DNA of 64,000 bases from a bacterium (GCA_965203325.1 OZ241875.1:3520001-3584000); one strand, 5' to 3'. Positions 9,195 through 52,622 are shown, counted from the first letter of the stretch. Numbers and translations are program-made. The notes: a model not told the origin generated them from the letters alone.

Positions 9195-9468
9195 GGGGTT
9201 GTTGAAGAAGCTCTCACATCTCTCTCATCCTGAAAACCAACCCCCCCTACCCCCCCTTAACAGGGGGGTAAAAAAAGAAAGCCCCCTTGTCAGGGGGTAT
9301 GAAATGGCGATGCCCGCCACCGATAGAGGGGGGTTTTGATTTTTCTTGCCCCCCTGTCAAGGGGGGGTAGGGGGGGTTGCCTTTATCCTCTGACATGGGG
9401 GGTTGGGGGTCGAACGCGACCGGAGAGAGAGTGTTCGCTCCCTTGACAAAGGCTTTCTCAACAACCCC
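9195..9468. mobile_element. MITE-like element with IS1182-type ends and internal C/G-tract inverted repeats
   Basis: GGGGTTGTTGAAGAA (9195-9209) and TTTCTCAACAACCCC (9454-9468); internal 30-bp inverted repeat 9239-9268 / 9349-9378 with one mismatch; extra CCCCCTTGTCAGGGGG hairpin near 9282. Confidence 0.8.
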
Positions 9469-31106: not shown

Positions 31107-31790
31107 ATGCCCCATCCCCTGGTCGAGCTGAAAGAAGTGTCCAAAACTTACGTCGCAGGCGATGTGCTCATCCACGCGCTTAAAGATGTGAACTTCCGGG
31201 TAGAACAAGGCGAGTTTATCACGGTTTCGGGCCCGAGCGGCTCGGGCAAGAGCACGTTTCTGCACTTGATGGGCGCGGTCGATGCACCCACCGGCGGCGA
31301 GGTTTTTCTGGGCGGACGGGAAATATCGCGCCTGAGCGATGAGGGCCTGAGCGAAATTCGCCGCAAAGAGGTGGGCTTCATCCATCAGTTCTTTCACCTC
31401 ATGCCGACGATGACGGCTTATGAAAACGTCGCCCTGCCGCTACTGCTTCAGGGCCGGAAGCGCGCCGAGATCAAAGAGATGGCCGAAAACGCCCTGGCGC
31501 GGGTAGGGCTTGAGAACCGTATGCGCAGCTTCCCGAGGCAACTCTCGGGCGGCGAGATGCAGCGCGTGGCCGTTGCGCGCGCCGTCATCCACAAACCCCG
31601 TCTCATCCTCGCCGATGAGCCGACGGGAAATCTCGATTCTGAAAACTCGCAAAACGTCCTGGAACTCGTCGCAGAACTCCACGAAGAAGATGGTTTCACT
31701 GTCGTCATGGCGACGCACGACCAGATGCCCTTGCACTACGCCACCCGGAGGGTCGGAATAGTTGATGGCCGCCTGGAGGGGGGTTGTTGA
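31107..31790 (+). CDS. ABC transporter ATP-binding protein (LolD/MacB type); stop codon lies in the MITE end
   Basis: [25 protein letters not shown]. Confidence 0.95.
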
Positions 31791-32088
31791 AAAAGACCTG
31801 GCTTCGTGATTCGGCGTATGTAATCGACCGGGGAGGGAATATGTCTCCATCCGCGTTTGGTGACGTAGGGGCGGCCCCCCGTGGCCGCCCGTATCGAAGA
31901 TGTCTACCCTCGTGGTTGTCCCGCATCAGGACAGGCACAGGGGCCTGTCCCTACGGTGTACAATTCGATAATCGGGATGCCCTCCCCCAAAGGGGTTGTT
32001 GTCTTTCCGATCGAGAGTGTTCACCGTCATTCCGGCGGAATGACGGCAGTGGCCAATTCCGGGCGAGAAGGGGTTTTTCAACAACCCC
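31780..32088. mobile_element. MITE with perfect 15-bp terminal inverted repeats and 5-bp target duplication
   Basis: GGGGTTGTTGAAAAA / TTTTTCAACAACCCC; GGAGG at both 31775-31779 and 32089-32093; GTAG-REP doublet and CGTC palindrome inside. Confidence 0.92.
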
Positions 32089-46240: not shown

Positions 46241-47395
46241 ATGAGCACAGACGGAACCGCGCAGGCTGAATACGTGGCCCCCACCTGGGACACGAAGATG
46301 CCCTTGCCGTCCAATCCCGAGACGGGCGAGGACGCGAACGACTACTACATCATCGACTGCGAAACGCACGTGATGCCAGAGGATTACCGGCGCTTCATCA
46401 AGTATTTCGAGGGGACGAAAACCTTCGAGTACGCGCACAAGATGTGCAACCAGTGGCAGTGGATCGACCACAGGAACAACAGGCCGGCGGCCATCCACCC
46501 GGGCATGGACTGGCATATCGACAAGATCATCGGCGACATGAACCGCGCCGGCGTGGACCAGATAGCCCTCATGCGCGAGTCGTTCATCGACACGGCGGGC
46601 GACAGCGCGCCGTTCTCCACGAACCAGCACGTCATCGACGCCATCGAGAAATATCCCGACCGCGTTATCGGCGTCTCGAACGTGGGGCCGTTCTCGAAGC
46701 GCAAGACCAAGGATTTCCTCTGGGAGATGGAATACCTCCACGACAACTACAACTTCAAGTTCACCAAGTTCTATCAGCCCGAGGACTGCCCCATCAACGA
46801 CCGCAGGCTCTGGCCCGCCTATGAGATGTGCCAGGACAAGGGCATCGTGGCCTTCTTCCACACCGGCATCACCATCCGGCTGGGTCCCACGCGCTACACC
46901 CTGCCGATTCTGCTGGACGAGGTGGCATCCGACTTCCCGGACCTCAAAATCGTCGCCTACCACGGCGGCTATCCCTACTGGGAAGACCTCGTCATGTTGA
47001 TGTGGAAACACCCGAACGTGTACGTGAGCTACTCGATCCTGCTGCCCTGGCTCATGCGCGCGCCGCACCGCTTCGCCCACATGGTCGGCACGACGCTGCA
47101 GATCGTCGGCCCCGGCCGATTCGTCTGGGGCAGCGACTGGCCGGCTTCGGACCCCTACCAGTCGGTCGAGGCGGTCCTGAAGCTCCATATCGACGAGGAA
47201 CTGCAGGAGAAGTGGGGTTATCCCGCCATCACGAAAGAGGACAAGGCGGGCTTCCTGGGCACCACGCTCGCGCACCTCGCGGGCATCGACCCGGTGAAGA
47301 ACCACCAGAAATTCCCCGGCATGAACGGTGCGCCGGAAGGGAAGACGCCGGAGGGCGACATCACCCGCGCCATCATGGCGAAGAACGGCAGCTGA
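46241..47395 (+). CDS. Amidohydrolase_2 family protein
   Basis: IIDCETH, FHTG, YHGGYP, WGSDWP. Confidence 0.9.
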   Translation: MSTDGTAQAEYVAPTWDTKMPLPSNPETGEDANDYYIIDCETHVMPEDYRRFIKYFEGTKTFEYAHKMCNQWQWIDHRNNRPAAIHPGMDWHIDKIIGDMNRAGVDQIALMRESFIDTAGDSAPFSTNQHVIDAIEKYPDRVIGVSNVGPFSKRKTKDFLWEMEYLHDNYNFKFTKFYQPEDCPINDRRLWPAYEMCQDKGIVAFFHTGITIRLGPTRYTLPILLDEVASDFPDLKIVAYHGGYPYWEDLVMLMWKHPNVYVSYSILLPWLMRAPHRFAHMVGTTLQIVGPGRFVWGSDWPASDPYQSVEAVLKLHIDEELQEKWGYPAITKEDKAGFLGTTLAHLAGIDPVKNHQKFPGMNGAPEGKTPEGDITRAIMAKNGS

Positions 47396-47429
47396 TTAGA
47401 AAGAGAAGGGCTTCTCGCCTGAAAGTATG

Positions 47430-47465
47430 AAACCCCGTCCGGGTTCGCCCGGGCGGGGTTTTGTT
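47430..47465 (+). terminator. Rho-independent terminator
   Basis: AAACCCCGTCCGGG-TTCG-CCCGGGCGGGGTTTTGTT. Confidence 0.8.
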
Positions 47466-47666
47466 GTGGAGAAAATCGGGCGGCAACTGTTCGGGGAATG
47501 GATTTTGGGGGGAATCGCATACATGACTCGACCACAGGGGACATTGCATTTGCCCCCTTGTCAGAGTTGTTGAAAAAGCCCTCATCGGGGGACATTGCCT
47601 TTAGCGGGAATGCCGCTTTCGCGCGAGCCCTCGATTTCCCTCGTCGAAAGGCAACCCCCCCTTGTC

Positions 47667-49182
47667 GGGGCTGTTGAAAAACCCCGTTTTGAAGCGGGAT
47701 GTATGGCGGCTCACGCGGCTTGGGAGAGGAAGCCCAATCGGCGCGTGAGGCCGCGATATGCGCTCATTCGGCGTTTCCGGGCGGCGCAGGCTCTCCACAG
47801 AGCGAACAAACGCGCCGCAACAGCGGCGGCGAGCCGCTTGAGGTTCACCGCAGCCGCCGTCAGGTAGGCCTGGATCTTCATGTTCGCAAGACCCCGGCGC
47901 ACCGCCCGCGCCAGTCCGTGCCGACTCTTCGCCTCGCCGTGATAGCCTTCGGAGCGACCCATGTGCCGGCGCCACAGCCGACCCTCCTCCTCCCCACGGC
48001 GCGCGTGGCGACGGCGTGCGCGCAACAGCGCCGGATACTCGTGCGGAACCAGCACCGTCCGGCTCGTGCGGGACTTCGACAGACAATCGGCCTTGAGCGA
48101 GCAACCCGCGCAATCGCGCGTCCTCGATACATAGTAGCGACCCCGCTCCGTCTCCTTCCGGGGACGCAGCGTCTTGCCACCCGGACACTTCACCACCTTG
48201 TGACGCTCGTCGTAGCGGAACAGTTGCAGCGGCACCCGGCTCTGGGTGGGTTCCTTCTTCGCCGGTATCACCGCGTCCACCCCCCGACGCTCCAATGCGC
48301 CGTACACCTTCGAGTACGCATAGCCACTATCCGCCGTCACCACCGCGGGCGCGCGACCCGTGAGCTCGCAAACCGCATCCAGCTGCGGCTCCATCATCTC
48401 CCGCTCGTTCAACGTCCCCGCCGTCACCTCTACGTCGAGGACAACGCCCCGCTCATCGTCCACCACCGCGTGGTGCTTGTAGCTCGGCTCGAACCCCGCC
48501 CGAGCGCTCTTGCGCGCCAGACGCGCGTCGGGGTCCGTTCGGCTCACAGGACCCGAACCCCCGCCACCGCCCTTCTTCCCCATCTCATCCGCCGAGTCGT
48601 TCTCCCGCACCACCTTCTCCGCGTGGCGCTCCGCCAGACTCTCCCAACTCACGTCCGCACGTATCAAAGACGCGTCCATGTGAACCACTTCTCCCTTCGC
48701 CACCTTCGCCTCCACGCAAGCCTGAACCGTGCGCCGAAATATCTCCTTGAACCGCTCCTCCCCCCAGCGCTGACGAATCCGCGTCAGGCTCGAATGATCC
48801 GGCAAATCCTCGTCCAGCCTGTACCCGATGAACCACCGGACCGCCAGATGCGCCTGCGCCTCGCGCAGCAGGCGGCGGTCCTCCGCGTAGCCCAGCAGCA
48901 GGCCCGCCAGCATCAACCGGATCACCACTTCCGGGTCGATCCCCGGTCGACCGTTGTCCGCGCAATAGCACTCCGCCACTTCCTCGCGAAGCCAACTCAA
49001 ATCCAGTACGCGGTCCACCTGGCGCAATATGTGATCTTCGGGAATCAACTTCTCCAGCGGGCCGGCCACGAACAAGTCCATCTGCTCGCGCCTCTTGCGG
49101 TCCAACATCTCCGGAACTCCCATCTCGGGCGAGGGGGAATACATCCATACGCTCACAAAACCAGGGGTTTTTCAACAGGCCC
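47667..49182 (-). mobile_element. IS1182-family insertion sequence, copy 1
   Basis: Ends GGGGCTGTTGAAAAA / TTTTTCAACAGGCCC; TTGTC direct repeats at 47662-47666 and 49183-49187. Confidence 0.93.
47711..49108 (-). CDS. IS1182-family DDE transposase
   Basis: GRPGIDP, LAVRWF, PDHSSL, MDAS, TADSGY, RSEG..GEAK, AVNLKRL. Confidence 0.93.
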   Translation of the reverse strand: MLDRKRREQMDLFVAGPLEKLIPEDHILRQVDRVLDLSWLREEVAECYCADNGRPGIDPEVVIRLMLAGLLLGYAEDRRLLREAQAHLAVRWFIGYRLDEDLPDHSSLTRIRQRWGEERFKEIFRRTVQACVEAKVAKGEVVHMDASLIRADVSWESLAERHAEKVVRENDSADEMGKKGGGGGSGPVSRTDPDARLARKSARAGFEPSYKHHAVVDDERGVVLDVEVTAGTLNEREMMEPQLDAVCELTGRAPAVVTADSGYAYSKVYGALERRGVDAVIPAKKEPTQSRVPLQLFRYDERHKVVKCPGGKTLRPRKETERGRYYVSRTRDCAGCSLKADCLSKSRTSRTVLVPHEYPALLRARRRHARRGEEEGRLWRRHMGRSEGYHGEAKSRHGLARAVRRGLANMKIQAYLTAAAVNLKRLAAAVAARLFALWRACAARKRRMSAYRGLTRRLGFLSQAA

Positions 49183-49271
49183 TTGTCAGGGGGGTAAGAA
49201 GAAGCAACACCCCGACGAGAGAGGTATCACTCCCCCTTTGCAGAGCAACCAACAATCACTCCCCCCTTGAG

Positions 49272-50793
49272 GGGGCTGTTGAAAAACCCCGTTTTGAAGC
49301 GGGAGGTATGGCGTCTCACGCAGCGGCGGAGAGGAAGCCCGCGAGGTGCGTGAGGCCGCCAGGAACGCGCATTCGGCGTCTCAAGGCGGCGCAGGCCCTC
49401 CACAGAGCGAATAAACGCGCCGCAACAGCGGCGGCGAGCCGCTTGAGGTTCACCGCAGTCGCCGTCAGGTAGGCCTGGATCCTTATGTTCGCAAGACCCC
49501 GGCGCACCGCCCGCGCCAGGCCGTGCCAACTCTTCGCCTCGCCGTGATAGCCCTCCGAGCGACCCATGTGCCGGCGCCACAGCCGACCCTCCTCCTCCCC
49601 ACGGCGCGTGTGGCGACGGCGCGCGCGTAACAGCGCCGGATACTCATGCGGAACCAGCACCGTCCTGCTCGTGCGGGACTTCGACAGACAATCGGCCTTG
49701 AGCGCGCAGCCCGCGCAATCGCGCGTCCTCGATACATAGTAGCGACCCCGCTCCGTCTCCTTCCGGGGGCGCAGCGTCTTGCCCCCCGGACACTTCACCA
49801 CCTTGTGACGCTCATCGTAGCGGAACAGCTGCAACGGCACCCGGCTCTGGGAAGGCTCCTTCTTCGCCGGTATCACCGCGTCCACCCCCCGACGCTCCAA
49901 TGCGCCGTACACCTTCGAGTACGCATAGCCCGAATCCGCCGTCACCACCCCGGGCGCGCGCCCCGTGAGCTCGCAAACCGCATCCAACTGCGGCTCCATC
50001 ATCTCCCGCTCGTTCAACGTCCCCTCCGTCACCGCAACGTCGAGGACAACGCCCCGCTCATCGTCCACCACCGCGTGGTGCTTGTAGCTCGGCTCGAACC
50101 CCGCCCGAGCGCTCTTGCGCGCCAGGCGAGCGTCCGGGTCCGTTCGGCTCACAGACCCCGAACCCCCGCCCCGGCCTTTGCCCTTCTTCTCCGTCTCATC
50201 CTCCGAATCGTTCTCCCGCACCACCTTCTCCGCGTGGCGCTCCGCCAGACTCTCCCAGCTCACGTCCGCACGTATCAAAGAGGCGTCCATGTGAACCACC
50301 TCTCCCGTCGCCACCTTCGCCTCCACGCAAGCCTGAACCGTGCGGCGCAATACCTCCTTGAAGCGCTCCTCCCCCCAGCGCTGGCGAATCCGCGTCAGGC
50401 TCGAATGGTCCGGCAACTCCTCGTCCAGCCTGTACCCGATGAACCACCGGATCGCCAGGTGCGCCTGCGCCTCGCGCAACAGACGCCGGTCGTGGGCGTA
50501 GCCCAGCAGCAGGCCCGCCAGCATCAACCGAACCACCACTTCGGGGTCCAGGCCCGGACGGCCATTGTCCGCGCAATAGCACTCCGCCACTTCCTCGCGA
50601 AGCCAGCTCAAATCCAGTACGCGGTCCACCTGCCGCAATATGTGATCTTCGGGAATCAACTTCTCCAGCGGGCCGGCCACGAACAAGTCCATCTGCTCGC
50701 GCCTCTTGCGATCCAGCATCGAGGGAACTCCCATCTCGGGCGAGTCGGGATAACTCCATACGATCACAAAACCAAGGGTTTTTCAACAGGCCC
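49272..50793 (-). mobile_element. IS1182-family insertion sequence, copy 2
   Basis: Same ends; TTGAG direct repeats at 49267-49271 and 50794-50798. Confidence 0.93.
49316..50719 (-). CDS. IS1182-family DDE transposase
   Basis: Near-identical to copy 1; intact frame. Confidence 0.93.
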   Translation of the reverse strand: MLDRKRREQMDLFVAGPLEKLIPEDHILRQVDRVLDLSWLREEVAECYCADNGRPGLDPEVVVRLMLAGLLLGYAHDRRLLREAQAHLAIRWFIGYRLDEELPDHSSLTRIRQRWGEERFKEVLRRTVQACVEAKVATGEVVHMDASLIRADVSWESLAERHAEKVVRENDSEDETEKKGKGRGGGSGSVSRTDPDARLARKSARAGFEPSYKHHAVVDDERGVVLDVAVTEGTLNEREMMEPQLDAVCELTGRAPGVVTADSGYAYSKVYGALERRGVDAVIPAKKEPSQSRVPLQLFRYDERHKVVKCPGGKTLRPRKETERGRYYVSRTRDCAGCALKADCLSKSRTSRTVLVPHEYPALLRARRRHTRRGEEEGRLWRRHMGRSEGYHGEAKSWHGLARAVRRGLANIRIQAYLTATAVNLKRLAAAVAARLFALWRACAALRRRMRVPGGLTHLAGFLSAAA

Positions 50794-50970
50794 TTGAGGG
50801 GGAGTCGGCAAGACGAGGGCAAAGCCCGAAGTCGCGCCGGTGGGGGGAGAATTCCGACTGATAAAAGAGGAATTCCTGCGACCGAGGACAGAAGATTTAC
50901 TACAATAAAAGGCTCCCCCCACCACATCGGCCTTCGCAAAAACCGCTCGGCCTCTGTGACTCCCCCTCAA

Positions 50971-52495
50971 GGGTCTGTTGAAAAACCCTTGGTTTTGTGA
51001 TCGTATGGAGTTATCCCGACTCGCCCGAGATGGGAGTTCCCTTGATGATGGGCAGCAGGAGGCGCGAGCAGCTGGACTTGTTCGTGGCCGGTTCCATGGA
51101 GCAGTTGATTCCCGAAGATCACATATTGCGCCAGGTGAACCGCGTGCTGGATTTGAGCTGGCTTCGCGAGGAGGTGGCGGCGTGCTATTGCGCGGACAAC
51201 GGTCGACCGGGTCTGGACCCCGAGGTGGTGGTTCGGCTGATGCTGGCGGGCCTGCTGCTGGGCTACGCGCAGGACCGCCGCCTGCTTCGCGAGGCGCAGG
51301 CGCATCTGGCGATCCGGTGGTTCATCGGGTACGGGCTGCACGATGAGTTGCCGGATCATTCGAGCCTGACGCGTATCCGCCAGCGGTGGGGGGAGGAGCG
51401 GTTCAAGGAGATATTGCGCCGCACGGTTCAGTCTTGCGTGGAGGCGAAGGTGGCGAAGGGGGAAGTGGTGCACATGGACGCTTCGTTGATACGTGCGGAC
51501 GTGAGTTGGGCGAGTCTGGCGGAGCGCCACGCGGAGAAGGTGGTGCGGGAGAACGACTCGGCGGATGAGACGGAGAAGAAGGGCAAAGGCCGGGGCGGCG
51601 GGGGTTCGGGTCCGGTGAGCCGTACGGACCCGGACGCTCGCCTGGCGCGCAAGAGCGCTCGGGCGGGGTTCGAGCCGAGCTACAAGCACCACGCGGTGGT
51701 GGACGATGAGCGGGGCGTTGTCCTCGACGTTGCGGTGACGGAGGGGACGTTGAACGAGCGGGAGATGATGGAGCCGCAGTTGGATGCGGTTTGCGAGCTC
51801 ACGGGGCGCGCGCCCGGGGTGGTGACGGCGGATTCGGGCTATGCGTACTCGAAGGTGTACGGCGCATTGGAGCGTCGGGGGGTGGACGCGGTGATACCGG
51901 CGAAGAAGGAGCCTTCCCAGAGCCGGGTGCCGTTGCAGCTGTTCCGCTACGATGAGCGTCACAAGGTGGTGAAGTGTCCGGGGGGCAAGACGCTGCGCCC
52001 CCGGAAGGAGACGGAGCGGGGTCGCTACTATGTATCGAGGACGCGCGATTGCGCGGGCTGCGCGCTCAAGGCCGATTGTCTGTCGAAGTCCCGCACGAGC
52101 AGGACGGTGCTGGTTCCGCATGAGTATCCGGCGCTGTTACGCGCGCGCCGTCGCCACACGCGCCGTGGGGAGGAGGAGGGTCGGCTGTGGCGCCGGCACA
52201 TGGGTCGCTCGGAGGGCTACCACGGCGAGGCGAAGAGTTGGCACGGACTGGGGCGGGCGGTGCGCCGGGGCCTTGCGAACATGAGGATCCAGGCCTACCT
52301 GACGGCGACTGCGGTGAACCTCAAGCGGCTCGCCGCCGCTTTTGCGGCGAGTATATTCGCTCTGTGGAGGGCCTGCGCCGCCTTGAGACGCCGAGTGCGC
52401 GTTCCTCTCGGCCTCGCGCGCCGATTGGGCTTCCTATCCCAAGCCGCGTGAGCCGCCATTCAGCCCGCACCAAAACGGGGTTTTTCAACAGCCCC
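50971..52495 (+). mobile_element. IS1182-family insertion sequence, copy 3
   Basis: GGGTCTGTTGAAAAA / TTTTTCAACAGCCCC; CTCAA direct repeats at 50966-50970 and 52496-52500. Confidence 0.93.
51045..52451 (+). CDS. IS1182-family DDE transposase
   Basis: Near-identical to copies 1 and 2; intact frame. Confidence 0.93.
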   Translation: MMGSRRREQLDLFVAGSMEQLIPEDHILRQVNRVLDLSWLREEVAACYCADNGRPGLDPEVVVRLMLAGLLLGYAQDRRLLREAQAHLAIRWFIGYGLHDELPDHSSLTRIRQRWGEERFKEILRRTVQSCVEAKVAKGEVVHMDASLIRADVSWASLAERHAEKVVRENDSADETEKKGKGRGGGGSGPVSRTDPDARLARKSARAGFEPSYKHHAVVDDERGVVLDVAVTEGTLNEREMMEPQLDAVCELTGRAPGVVTADSGYAYSKVYGALERRGVDAVIPAKKEPSQSRVPLQLFRYDERHKVVKCPGGKTLRPRKETERGRYYVSRTRDCAGCALKADCLSKSRTSRTVLVPHEYPALLRARRRHTRRGEEEGRLWRRHMGRSEGYHGEAKSWHGLGRAVRRGLANMRIQAYLTATAVNLKRLAAAFAASIFALWRACAALRRRVRVPLGLARRLGFLSQAA

Positions 52496-52537
52496 CTCAA
52501 GGGGGGAGTGATTACGGACTGGCGCGGTGGTTCTGTG

Positions 52538-52622
52538 AGGACAGGCACGGAGGCCTGTCCCTACGGTAAACAATGCGATGATCGGGATGCCCTCCCCGAC
52601 GAGGGACTTCTCCAACACCCCC
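52538..52622. repeat. REP module plus degenerate terminal repeat
   Basis: 52538-52597 closely matches 31928-31987; TTCTCCAACACCCCC end abuts the TauE stop codon. Confidence 0.75.

Follow-up and report, generated by a model that had tools for sequence, protein, structure and literature searches.

How have three copies of one insertion sequence (IS) come to lie each inside the loop of a C-tract/G-tract hairpin within a single intergenic region, do these hairpins belong to the target or to the element, and what would the enzyme that placed the copies read? The question is raised by a stretch of 64,000 nucleotides (GCA_965203325.1 OZ241875.1:3520001-3584000; the whole stretch is called the window here, and positions without further mark are counted from its first letter). 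The window is part of the host genome G000, a single 4.39-Mb contig with 60.4% G+C, and the host is uncultured and apparently sponge-associated. Our analysis leads to the reading, to which we give a probability of roughly 0.85, that an active IS1182-family IS of about 1.52 kb is directed by a 5-bp staggered cut to one loop position in the hairpins of two repeat families, named A and B. The features on which this reading is built are listed as follows, where ORF stands for open reading frame and TSD for target-site duplication.

47667-49182, minus strand: IS copy 1 (IS1), 1516 bp, with the ends GGGGCTGTTGAAAAACCCC... and ...GGGGTTTTTCAACAGGCCC
47711-49156, minus strand: predicted transposase ORF of IS1, 481 aa, open frame
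47654-47666, plus strand: left flank of IS1, the left half of a family-B hairpin ACCCCCCC with TSD TTGTC (47662-47666)
49183-49195, plus strand: right flank of IS1, TSD TTGTC (49183-49187) with the right half of the family-B hairpin AGGGGGGT
49272-50792, minus strand: IS copy 2 (IS2), 1521 bp, with a body identical to 3 other genomic copies
49316-50767, minus strand: predicted transposase ORF of IS2, 483 aa, open frame
49257-49271, plus strand: left arm of a family-A hairpin CACTCCCCCC with TSD TTGAG (49267-49271), being the first arm of an A doublet
50793-50970, plus strand: IS2-IS3 spacer, consisting of TSD TTGAG, the right arm GGGGAGTC, the interior of the A doublet, GACTCCCC, and TSD CTCAA (50966-50970) of the inverted second arm
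50971-52495, plus strand: IS copy 3 (IS3), 1525 bp, with a body identical to the copy at genome position 3034268
50997-52451, plus strand: predicted transposase ORF of IS3, 484 aa, open frame
52496-52510, plus strand: TSD CTCAA (52496-52500) with GGGGGGAGTG, the remainder of the second arm of the A doublet

The element and its insertion sites

As the first-pass annotation of the window had claimed, each of the three IS1182 copies sits in the loop of a C-tract/G-tract hairpin, and the removal of the IS together with one 5-bp repeat gives back the hairpin, which was found both by reading and by script. In fact IS1, whose left side reads CCCCCCC-TTGTC, leaves ACCCCCCC-TTGTC-AGGGGGGT when it is taken out with one TSD, and IS2 (TTGAG at 49267-49271 and 50793-50797) leaves CACTCCCCCC-TTGAG-GGGGAGTC; restoring the IS3 site (CTCAA at 50966-50970 and 52496-52500) yields, also as first described, the IS2 site in exact reverse complement. 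IS2 and IS3 are inverted and have reverse-complement sites because they occupy the two arms of one A doublet. At family-A sites the boundary of the IS is ambiguous because its tips are G and C runs. At family-B sites the base following TTGTC in IS1 is a G, which comes from the IS, while the empty sites have A, and copy 1429753, which is reversed in the genome, has a C before GACAA, again from the IS, while the empty sites have T; therefore the duplication is exactly 5 bp.

Judged by its profile matches, the element is a member of the IS1182 family as had been proposed, and its transposase is predicted to be of the DDE type. The NCBIfam model NF033551 for IS1182 scores 350.3 bits against a cutoff of 270, whereas the next best model, one for IS5, scores 94.7 against a cutoff of 140, and the Pfam domains DUF772 (N-terminal), DDE_Tnp_1_6 and DDE_Tnp_1 are found in all three window transposases. 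IS1182-family elements are about 1.3-1.95 kb long and have terminal inverted repeats; here each element has one ORF (481-484 aa), a length of 1516-1525 bp and terminal inverted repeats of about 19-20 bp, GGG(G/C)CTGTTGAAAAACCC. IS1, IS2 and IS3 are all intact and mutually 92-97% identical. The host genome has 16 full-length copies, one of them frameshifted and another with two in-frame stops, and the sole further transposase homologue is a 30-aa fragment. Eight of the copies fall into three groups, in each of which the bodies are identical (888226, 2713588, 3032540 and 3569271; 2363514 and 3275585; 3034268 and 3570971), and since inside each group every copy lies in a different target, the element has been active recently.

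The insertion sites were then classed by script from their flanks, where a copy is called forward if the 3' end of its transposase lies beside the C-arm. Besides the 16 host copies, a scan of public genomes covers 53 loci, 51 of them in related metagenome-assembled genomes, with L050 (Rhodobacteraceae) and L053 (Caulobacteraceae) being alphaproteobacterial, and only the 45 relative loci that have two ends at IS length were classed.

Family A, forward: 6/16 in the host genome, 9/45 in relatives
Family A, reverse (TSD CTCAA, the complement of TTGAG): 8/45 in relatives
Family A, reversed, with TSD shifted by 1-2 nt (CAAGG, TCAAG): 2/16 in the host genome
Family B, forward: 5/16 in the host genome, 5/45 in relatives
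Family B, reverse: 1/16 in the host genome, 6/45 (GACAA) in relatives
Shifted: 1/45 in relatives
5-bp TSD outside any hairpin (ATCAT, GCCTT; L026, L037): 2/45 in relatives
Without TSD: 2/16 in the host genome; without exact TSD: 14/45 in relatives

Hairpin halves stand on both flanks of all 16 genomic copies, none of which has unrelated flanks, and a 5-bp TSD within a restorable hairpin is found for 14 of the 16 and for 29 of the 45 two-ended relative copies. In the two host copies without TSD, the left flank of 3005066 and the right flank of 924275 share TTGAG, as expected if two inverted IS copies recombined with each other. The majority of the 14 relative loci without exact TSD keep hairpin halves on both sides, inverted TSD pairs are present at several of them, and at two a single mismatch separates the repeats.

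A target logo was built from the 45 TSD-bearing sites of the host genome and the relatives together. In this logo C occupies positions -6 to -1 in 42-45 of the 45 sites, the TSD reads T, T, G, A/T, G/C, the next base is A or G, and then G (position +6 in our numbering) follows in 44 of 45; in the frame of the target the cut position is C6^TTG(A/T)(G/C)^(A)GG for either orientation of the IS, with carets delimiting the duplicated bases. The base-precise targeting of dispersed intergenic repeats, which had been suggested from the window only, is borne out by the flank classes and by this logo. The accompanying rule that the duplication always begins at TTG right after the C-tract holds in the window and at most sites, but not in the two shifted and the two TSD-less host copies. 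The constant orientation described for the window (3 of 3 copies) could not be extended: forward and reverse copies are 11:3 among the 14 TSD-bearing host copies and 14:15 in relatives, with one of the reverse cases shifted. The orientation of the IS is free, and its insertion position is fixed in the target frame.

As a side observation, two loci (IS2/IS3 in the window and 3032540/3034268 elsewhere in the host genome) have the same two IS variants in inverted arrangement about 180-205 bp apart in different targets, which may be a coincidence or the result of paired local hopping. A composite transposon was considered for both loci and rejected, for the intervening and the flanking sequences differ, as in independent insertions.

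Target repeats and empty sites

C-tract/loop/G-tract motifs occur 370 times in the plus-strand text of the host genome, where four loop types dominate, against 36 mirror motifs (G-tract/loop/C-tract) with scattered loops, and this excess is far beyond chance. The single repeat family supposed at first gives way to two families plus variants. Family A, with 162 copies, has the consensus aaaTccACTCCCCCCTTGAGGGGGAGTcgaagAgg and the site ACTCCCCCC^TTGAG^GGGGAGT; family B, for which a slightly wider pattern gives 236 copies, is AACCCCCCCTACCCCCCC-TTGTCA/TTGACA/TTAACA-GGGGGGtAAgAAAAAg and has the site TACCCCCCC^TTGTC^AGGGGGGTA with the loop variants TTGAC, TTAAC and TTATC. Both counts include a few IS junctions, since the junctions re-form the motif. 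The median energy of single-stranded DNA folding is about -8.7 kcal/mol for A and -7.8 kcal/mol for B. In family A 47 forward-reverse pairs form doublets, most of them 125-149 bp apart and five at 176-313 bp, and in family B 86 such pairs, for which spacings of about 64-73 or 95-105 bp prevail (about 70-105 bp in round terms), while the opposite, reverse-forward arrangement is seen only 2 times for A and 1 time for B. REPINs (PMC3116915) are likewise inverted doublets with fixed spacing between convergent genes, and we therefore call the A/B doublets REPIN-like. Two further properties of family B were seen: the strand complementary to AACCCCCCCTACCCCCCC has two G7 runs two bases apart, where a G-quadruplex could form, and the loops TTGACA and TTGTCA seem to resemble a -35 hexamer.

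The window itself contains unoccupied sites, among them the empty target near 9282 that had already been pointed out.

9282-9297, plus strand: unoccupied family-B hairpin CCCCCTTGTCAGGGGG
Starts at 9250, 9349, 21021 and 21126: further empty B sites
Start at 9465: empty A site

It may be asked whether the C-tract/G-tract flanks are really target, or whether they are long terminal inverted repeats of the element itself. A palindromic target makes the flanks mimic extended inverted repeats, and the composite "C-arm + TTGAG + T unit", the T unit being a solo IS end as described below, recurs 27 times without an IS, which would favour flanks that travel with the element. On the other side, the 5-bp loops are direct and not inverted repeats, identical IS bodies bear A, A' (a variant of A) or B flanks with different TSDs, and beyond the palindromic part the flanks keep to each repeat family's consensus; about 400 A/B copies in the host genome are free of any IS. 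Moreover, two orthologous sites are intact and empty in relatives. For the IS1-IS3 region, 12 same-genus genomes were searched with the flanking genes, with the loci L055-L058, L062 and L087 examined closely; both flanking genes matched in all 12 genomes, in nine of them on one contig and 47-2,972 bp apart, and the three-IS arrangement was found in none of the six loci examined. At the IS1 locus, L056 has an intact B hairpin ...GGCAACCCCCCCTACCCCCCCTTGTCAGGGGGGTA...; its left flank agrees with the window at 93% identity along the 413 nt that lead to the junction and goes on as ...AACCCCCCCTACCCCCCCTTGTCAGGGGGGTA... At the locus of copy 3275585 the A doublet recurs in L087, and there its second arm, GACTCCCCCTCAAGGGGGGAGT, is unbroken. 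For 888226 and 2713588 no empty site was obtained, as these loci are uninformative: relatives have other repeat mosaics there, or the match ends 126 nt before the junction. By the identical bodies in different targets, the run-on of the consensus and the orthologous empty sites, the flanks are to be taken as target DNA and not as element ends. The objection that they might be part of the ends, which the first-pass annotation had raised against itself, is refuted by the two empty sites, and we give it next to no credence.

Logan contigs from four runs were also compared with positions 46600-49260. None of them joins across IS1, which is no evidence either way as such contigs drop rare variants; contigs without differences bridge the junction between the left flank and IS1 (46998-47683 in run X15). 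In one metagenome contig (run X16), 10 other letters replace 118 bp at 47466-47583, the region of a solo T unit, so that a strain variant of the repeat mosaic exists at 47466-47583.

A different origin of the pattern would be that the IS owes its spread to exchange between the flanking repeats, through homologous recombination or gene conversion, and not to targeted transposition. There are hundreds of near-identical target repeats, mostly in doublets, on which recombination could act, and the hybrid or inverted TSD pairs (2/16 host copies, plus L013, L042, L043, L045 and L047) show that IS-IS recombination does take place. However, the same IS body is found in two unrelated repeat families, in both orientations and with five TSD sequences, the non-hairpin sites L026 and L037 have clean 5-bp TSDs, and similarity of the flanks past about 20 bp is often absent, which makes this origin very unlikely in our view.

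Sequence or structure of the target

What, then, would the transposase recognise in a hairpin repeat? The general statement that some IS1182 members favour palindromic targets stands in print for IS1272 (PMC4923244; PMC5678879), but the importance of the hairpin structure is doubtful here, as the variant A' is used and other hairpins are unused. The transposase may nevertheless recognise a hairpin or cruciform that has been extruded, in the way suggested for IS1272, and join at the 5' side of the loop, so that the loop alone is duplicated. IS1272 and TnSha1 enter hairpins of little primary sequence conservation according to PMC4923244, and a loop-only duplication corresponds to pathway c in the Fig. 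13 model of Wan et al. (PMC5678879); the A and B sites fold well in single-stranded form, and both orientations are found as a symmetric structure predicts. The other hairpins of the genome tell against it. An unbiased census of the host genome for perfect stems of 8 bp enclosing 3-8-nt loops gave further abundant families (GGACAGGT-CGCG, 65; ATTCCGGC-TTTC/GAAA, 78; GGG[CT]CGCA-TATA, 57; GGGCGGTT-CGCG, 21), and such other-family hairpins with perfect stems, about 300 and equally good, flank none of the 16 + 45 IS copies. In addition the cut is centred on the dyad in family B and lies 1 nt off centre in family A, therefore it follows the C-tract/TTG and not the symmetry axis. Nor was a replication-strand bias of the transposase seen among the 16 host copies (10 co-directional, 6 head-on; a comparison of low power).

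In the variant A' the right arm is replaced by GGTCTGGCTTCCC... (GGTCTGG...) and is unable to pair with the C-arm, and its empty sites number 16-26 against about 110 full A sites; insertions into A' are found two times in the host genome and in L018, L019 and L030, hence A' is targeted at least as often as the full A sites. From the use of A' and the neglect of the other hairpins, the transpososome probably reads the duplex C6-TTG-N2-(A)GG and not an extruded hairpin, and we regard recognition of an extruded structure as the less favoured and rather doubtful possibility.

Two observations on the repeats themselves may be added. A' is an A hairpin whose G-arm is swapped for a 26-27-bp hairpin TCTGGCTTCCCGAGGGGAAAGCCAGAC (L068 compared with L087; 3032540 and 1782081 in the host genome), and the same orthologous doublet arm is A in the host genome and A' in G012, therefore the small hairpin TCTGGCTTCCCGAGGGGAAAGCCAGAC looks mobile too. 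Palindromic families that are never targeted lie in the same intergenic mosaics, namely GTAGGGACAGGTCGCGACCTGTCCCTAC, GGG[CT]CGCATATATGCG[GA]CCC, CATTCCGGC-(TTTC/GAAA)-GCCGGAATG and GGGGCGGTTCGCGAACCGCCCC.

In the mechanism proposed here, a single DDE transposase would mobilise an element bounded by 19-20-bp inverted repeats, and a 5-bp staggered cut would be directed to one loop position of the A and B hairpins. Insertion would be harmless to genes because the hairpins are mostly arms of doublets between convergent gene ends. The likeness of the IS tips (GGGG.../...CCC) to the arms of the target may contribute, because each new junction re-forms C-tract/loop/G-tract.

Solo element ends, known systems and meaning

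The end of the IS is also a repeat of its own. The inverted-repeat core TGTTGAAAAA occurs 241 times in the host genome against about 2 expected, and 209 of the occurrences are outside ISs, in the form GGGGyTGTTGAAAAAsyCC, which we call the T unit. Inward-facing pairs of T units 99-415 bp apart number 32, outward pairs less than 300 bp apart number 5, and the pairs bracket mosaics of other palindromic repeats. In the alphaproteobacterial locus L050 (58% protein identity) the IS ends are GGGGCTGTTGAAAAAATCG, therefore the end motif belongs to the IS lineage. Moreover in L055 a 175-bp element with IS ends lies in a B hairpin of the intergenic region of IS1, with TSD TTGTC; this hairpin is empty in L056, and the 175-bp element has a 99.4% identical copy in the host genome. 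The T units are likely, though this account is incomplete, to be non-autonomous derivatives, similar to MITEs (miniature transposable elements with inverted repeats), which the same enzyme would move. The simpler view of solo T units as plain MITE ends was dropped, for the asymmetry of their neighbouring hairpin halves (27:5) and the scarcity of TSDs misfit simple insertion. Separately, a T-unit pair in the window at about 31780-32088 carries the flanking 5-bp repeat GGAGG, and some short elements have the composite of C-arm+TTGNN and T unit at both ends in inverted form (e.g. 2147506/2147768).

The distribution of the repeats was surveyed in 41 genomes of the family, that is, 22 of the genus including the host genome and 19 from eight other genera. 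T units and the hairpins of both families, A and B, are present together in the same 16 of the 22 genus genomes and absent from the 19 genomes of the other genera, save single T-unit matches in two, and the reversed-pattern controls gave 0 in all 41. The transposase is found in 12 of the 16 repeat-bearing genomes, plus a fragment elsewhere, and several of those without it are fragmented assemblies. Most repeat-bearing genomes have 100-400 T units, the two lowest having 31 and 74, and solo T units are far more numerous than IS ends; G048, for instance, has 413 of them and 2 IS matches.

Such an all-or-none sharing of T units, A and B over the 41 genomes could also be expected if causality ran in reverse, with the hairpin repeats being mobile and inserting beside IS ends; many solo T units adjoin a hairpin half, and intergenic mosaics change quickly between species, which would agree with that. 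Yet each IS divides one hairpin into halves with a 5-bp duplication, orthologous hairpins are whole where the IS is absent, and more than 95% of the hairpins are nowhere near an IS, so that we consider the reversed order extremely improbable.

The neighbourhood of the three ISs in the window is completed by the following features.

46241-47395, plus strand: upstream gene, Amidohydro_2 (amidohydrolase), converging on the repeat/IS region
47563-47581, plus strand: T unit (solo IS terminal repeat) AGAGTTGTTGAAAAAGCCC, preceded by CCCCCTTGTC
52603-52622: degenerate T unit adjoining the TauE stop codon
52623-53375, minus strand: downstream gene, TauE/SafE exporter, convergent

The degenerate T unit at the TauE stop codon is seen in four relatives as well. 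The spacer of this convergent gene pair is about 5.2 kb here (47396-52622); in the comparison with L062, L056, L055, L057 and L058 it is 63 bp and repeat-free in one species and about 230-520 bp in four other species, with quite different repeat mosaics. As judged from these spacers, intergenic turnover is very fast between species.

A wider scenario may be sketched, which we think improbable on balance, in which the transposase would find its target by self-mimicry. The target CCC-N5-GGG(G) resembles the element's own abutted ends (...CAGsCCC / GGGsCTG...), so that each insertion would yield two target-like junctions, the T units would delimit zones where other palindromic repeats gather, and the IS, the T units and A/B would make up one co-dependent repeat ecosystem. 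If true, this would explain the identical all-or-none distribution of T units, A and B.

Several findings weigh against the reading of an IS directed to one loop position and of T units as its derivatives. The cut is not perfectly fixed, as the two reversed host copies shifted by 1-2 nt indicate, and 1-2 extra junction bases, mostly T, occur in five host copies and in L009 and L017. The 11:3 skew of orientation in the host genome is unpredicted by a fully symmetric model, with a two-sided binomial probability of about 0.06 from copies that are kin and thus non-independent. The empty site for IS1 aligns by its left flank and hairpin only, and to the right of the hairpin L056 differs. Every frequent target keeps a C/G stem of at least 3 bp, which leaves room for a possible role of a transient hairpin or cruciform. 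As for the T units, a flanking 5-bp direct repeat accompanies only 2 of the 32 inward pairs without jitter and 5 of the 32 with jitter, and solo T units have C-arm+TTGNN as the adjoining hairpin half in 27 cases and its counterpart in 5. The five host copies with extra bases are 1782081, 1862985, 3034268, 1711248 and 2363514, where the transposase-5' end shows T three times and TT once, and the opposite end A.

How does the element compare with known systems? Palindrome targeting by some IS1182 members is credited to Siguier et al. 2015, as cited in PMC4923244 and PMC5678879. According to the same papers, IS1272 and TnSha1 of staphylococci share the transposase family and likewise use inverted-repeat or hairpin targets, often behind genes and in both orientations; IS1272 removes a portion of the hairpin and leaves no TSD, a mode termed stem-loop replacement. 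Unlike IS1272, the present element has a clean 5-bp loop TSD, a fully restorable hairpin and a strong sequence specificity, C6^TTGNN^, so that the lack of TSD with a partly deleted hairpin, by which stem-loop replacement is marked, is not what is found for it. It behaves rather like the untested pathway c in the model of Wan et al. (Fig. 13 of PMC5678879).

Outside IS1182, ISs targeting repetitive extragenic palindromes (REPs) were surveyed by Tobes and Pareja 2006 (PMC1525189), in whose text ISPsy8 and IS1397/ISKpn1 (IS3), ISRm22 (IS4) and ISPpu9/10, ISPa11 and IS621 (IS110) are named; the survey covers IS3, IS110, IS4, IS256 and IS5, and the name IS1182 is absent from that text. By the same source, such ISs also have (nearly) all copies in a dispersed extragenic palindrome, at a fixed position at or near the dyad and with a short direct repeat; joining of the flanks restores the REP, and hybrid direct repeats arise through IS-IS recombination, as in ISRm22. 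For an association that survey asks for at least 4 copies, more than 45% of them associated, the same break point and a REP restored on joining; we found 16 copies, all with hairpin halves, with the same break point (two host copies being shifted) and an independent repeat restored. Different from the REP-targeting ISs are the two sequence-distinct target families and the amplification of the element's own end to more than 200 solo copies. No link between IS1182 and REP targeting was found in a literature search that left most subscription journals and ISfinder/TnPedia outside. The element is a new example of a known habit, the targeting of palindromic repeats by ISs, in a further family, and not a new class of system.

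To conclude, IS1182 joins the families known to home to REP-like palindromes, and 45 TSD-bearing natural insertions over several genomes define the target at single-base resolution. Within IS1182 the element makes a contrast to IS1272 and matches a pathway so far drawn only as a model, and the natural variants, namely the missing right arm, the loop variants and the unused hairpins, argue for recognition of sequence and make the question directly testable. More generally, the locus illustrates how intergenic regions are built up in an uncultured, apparently sponge-associated lineage.

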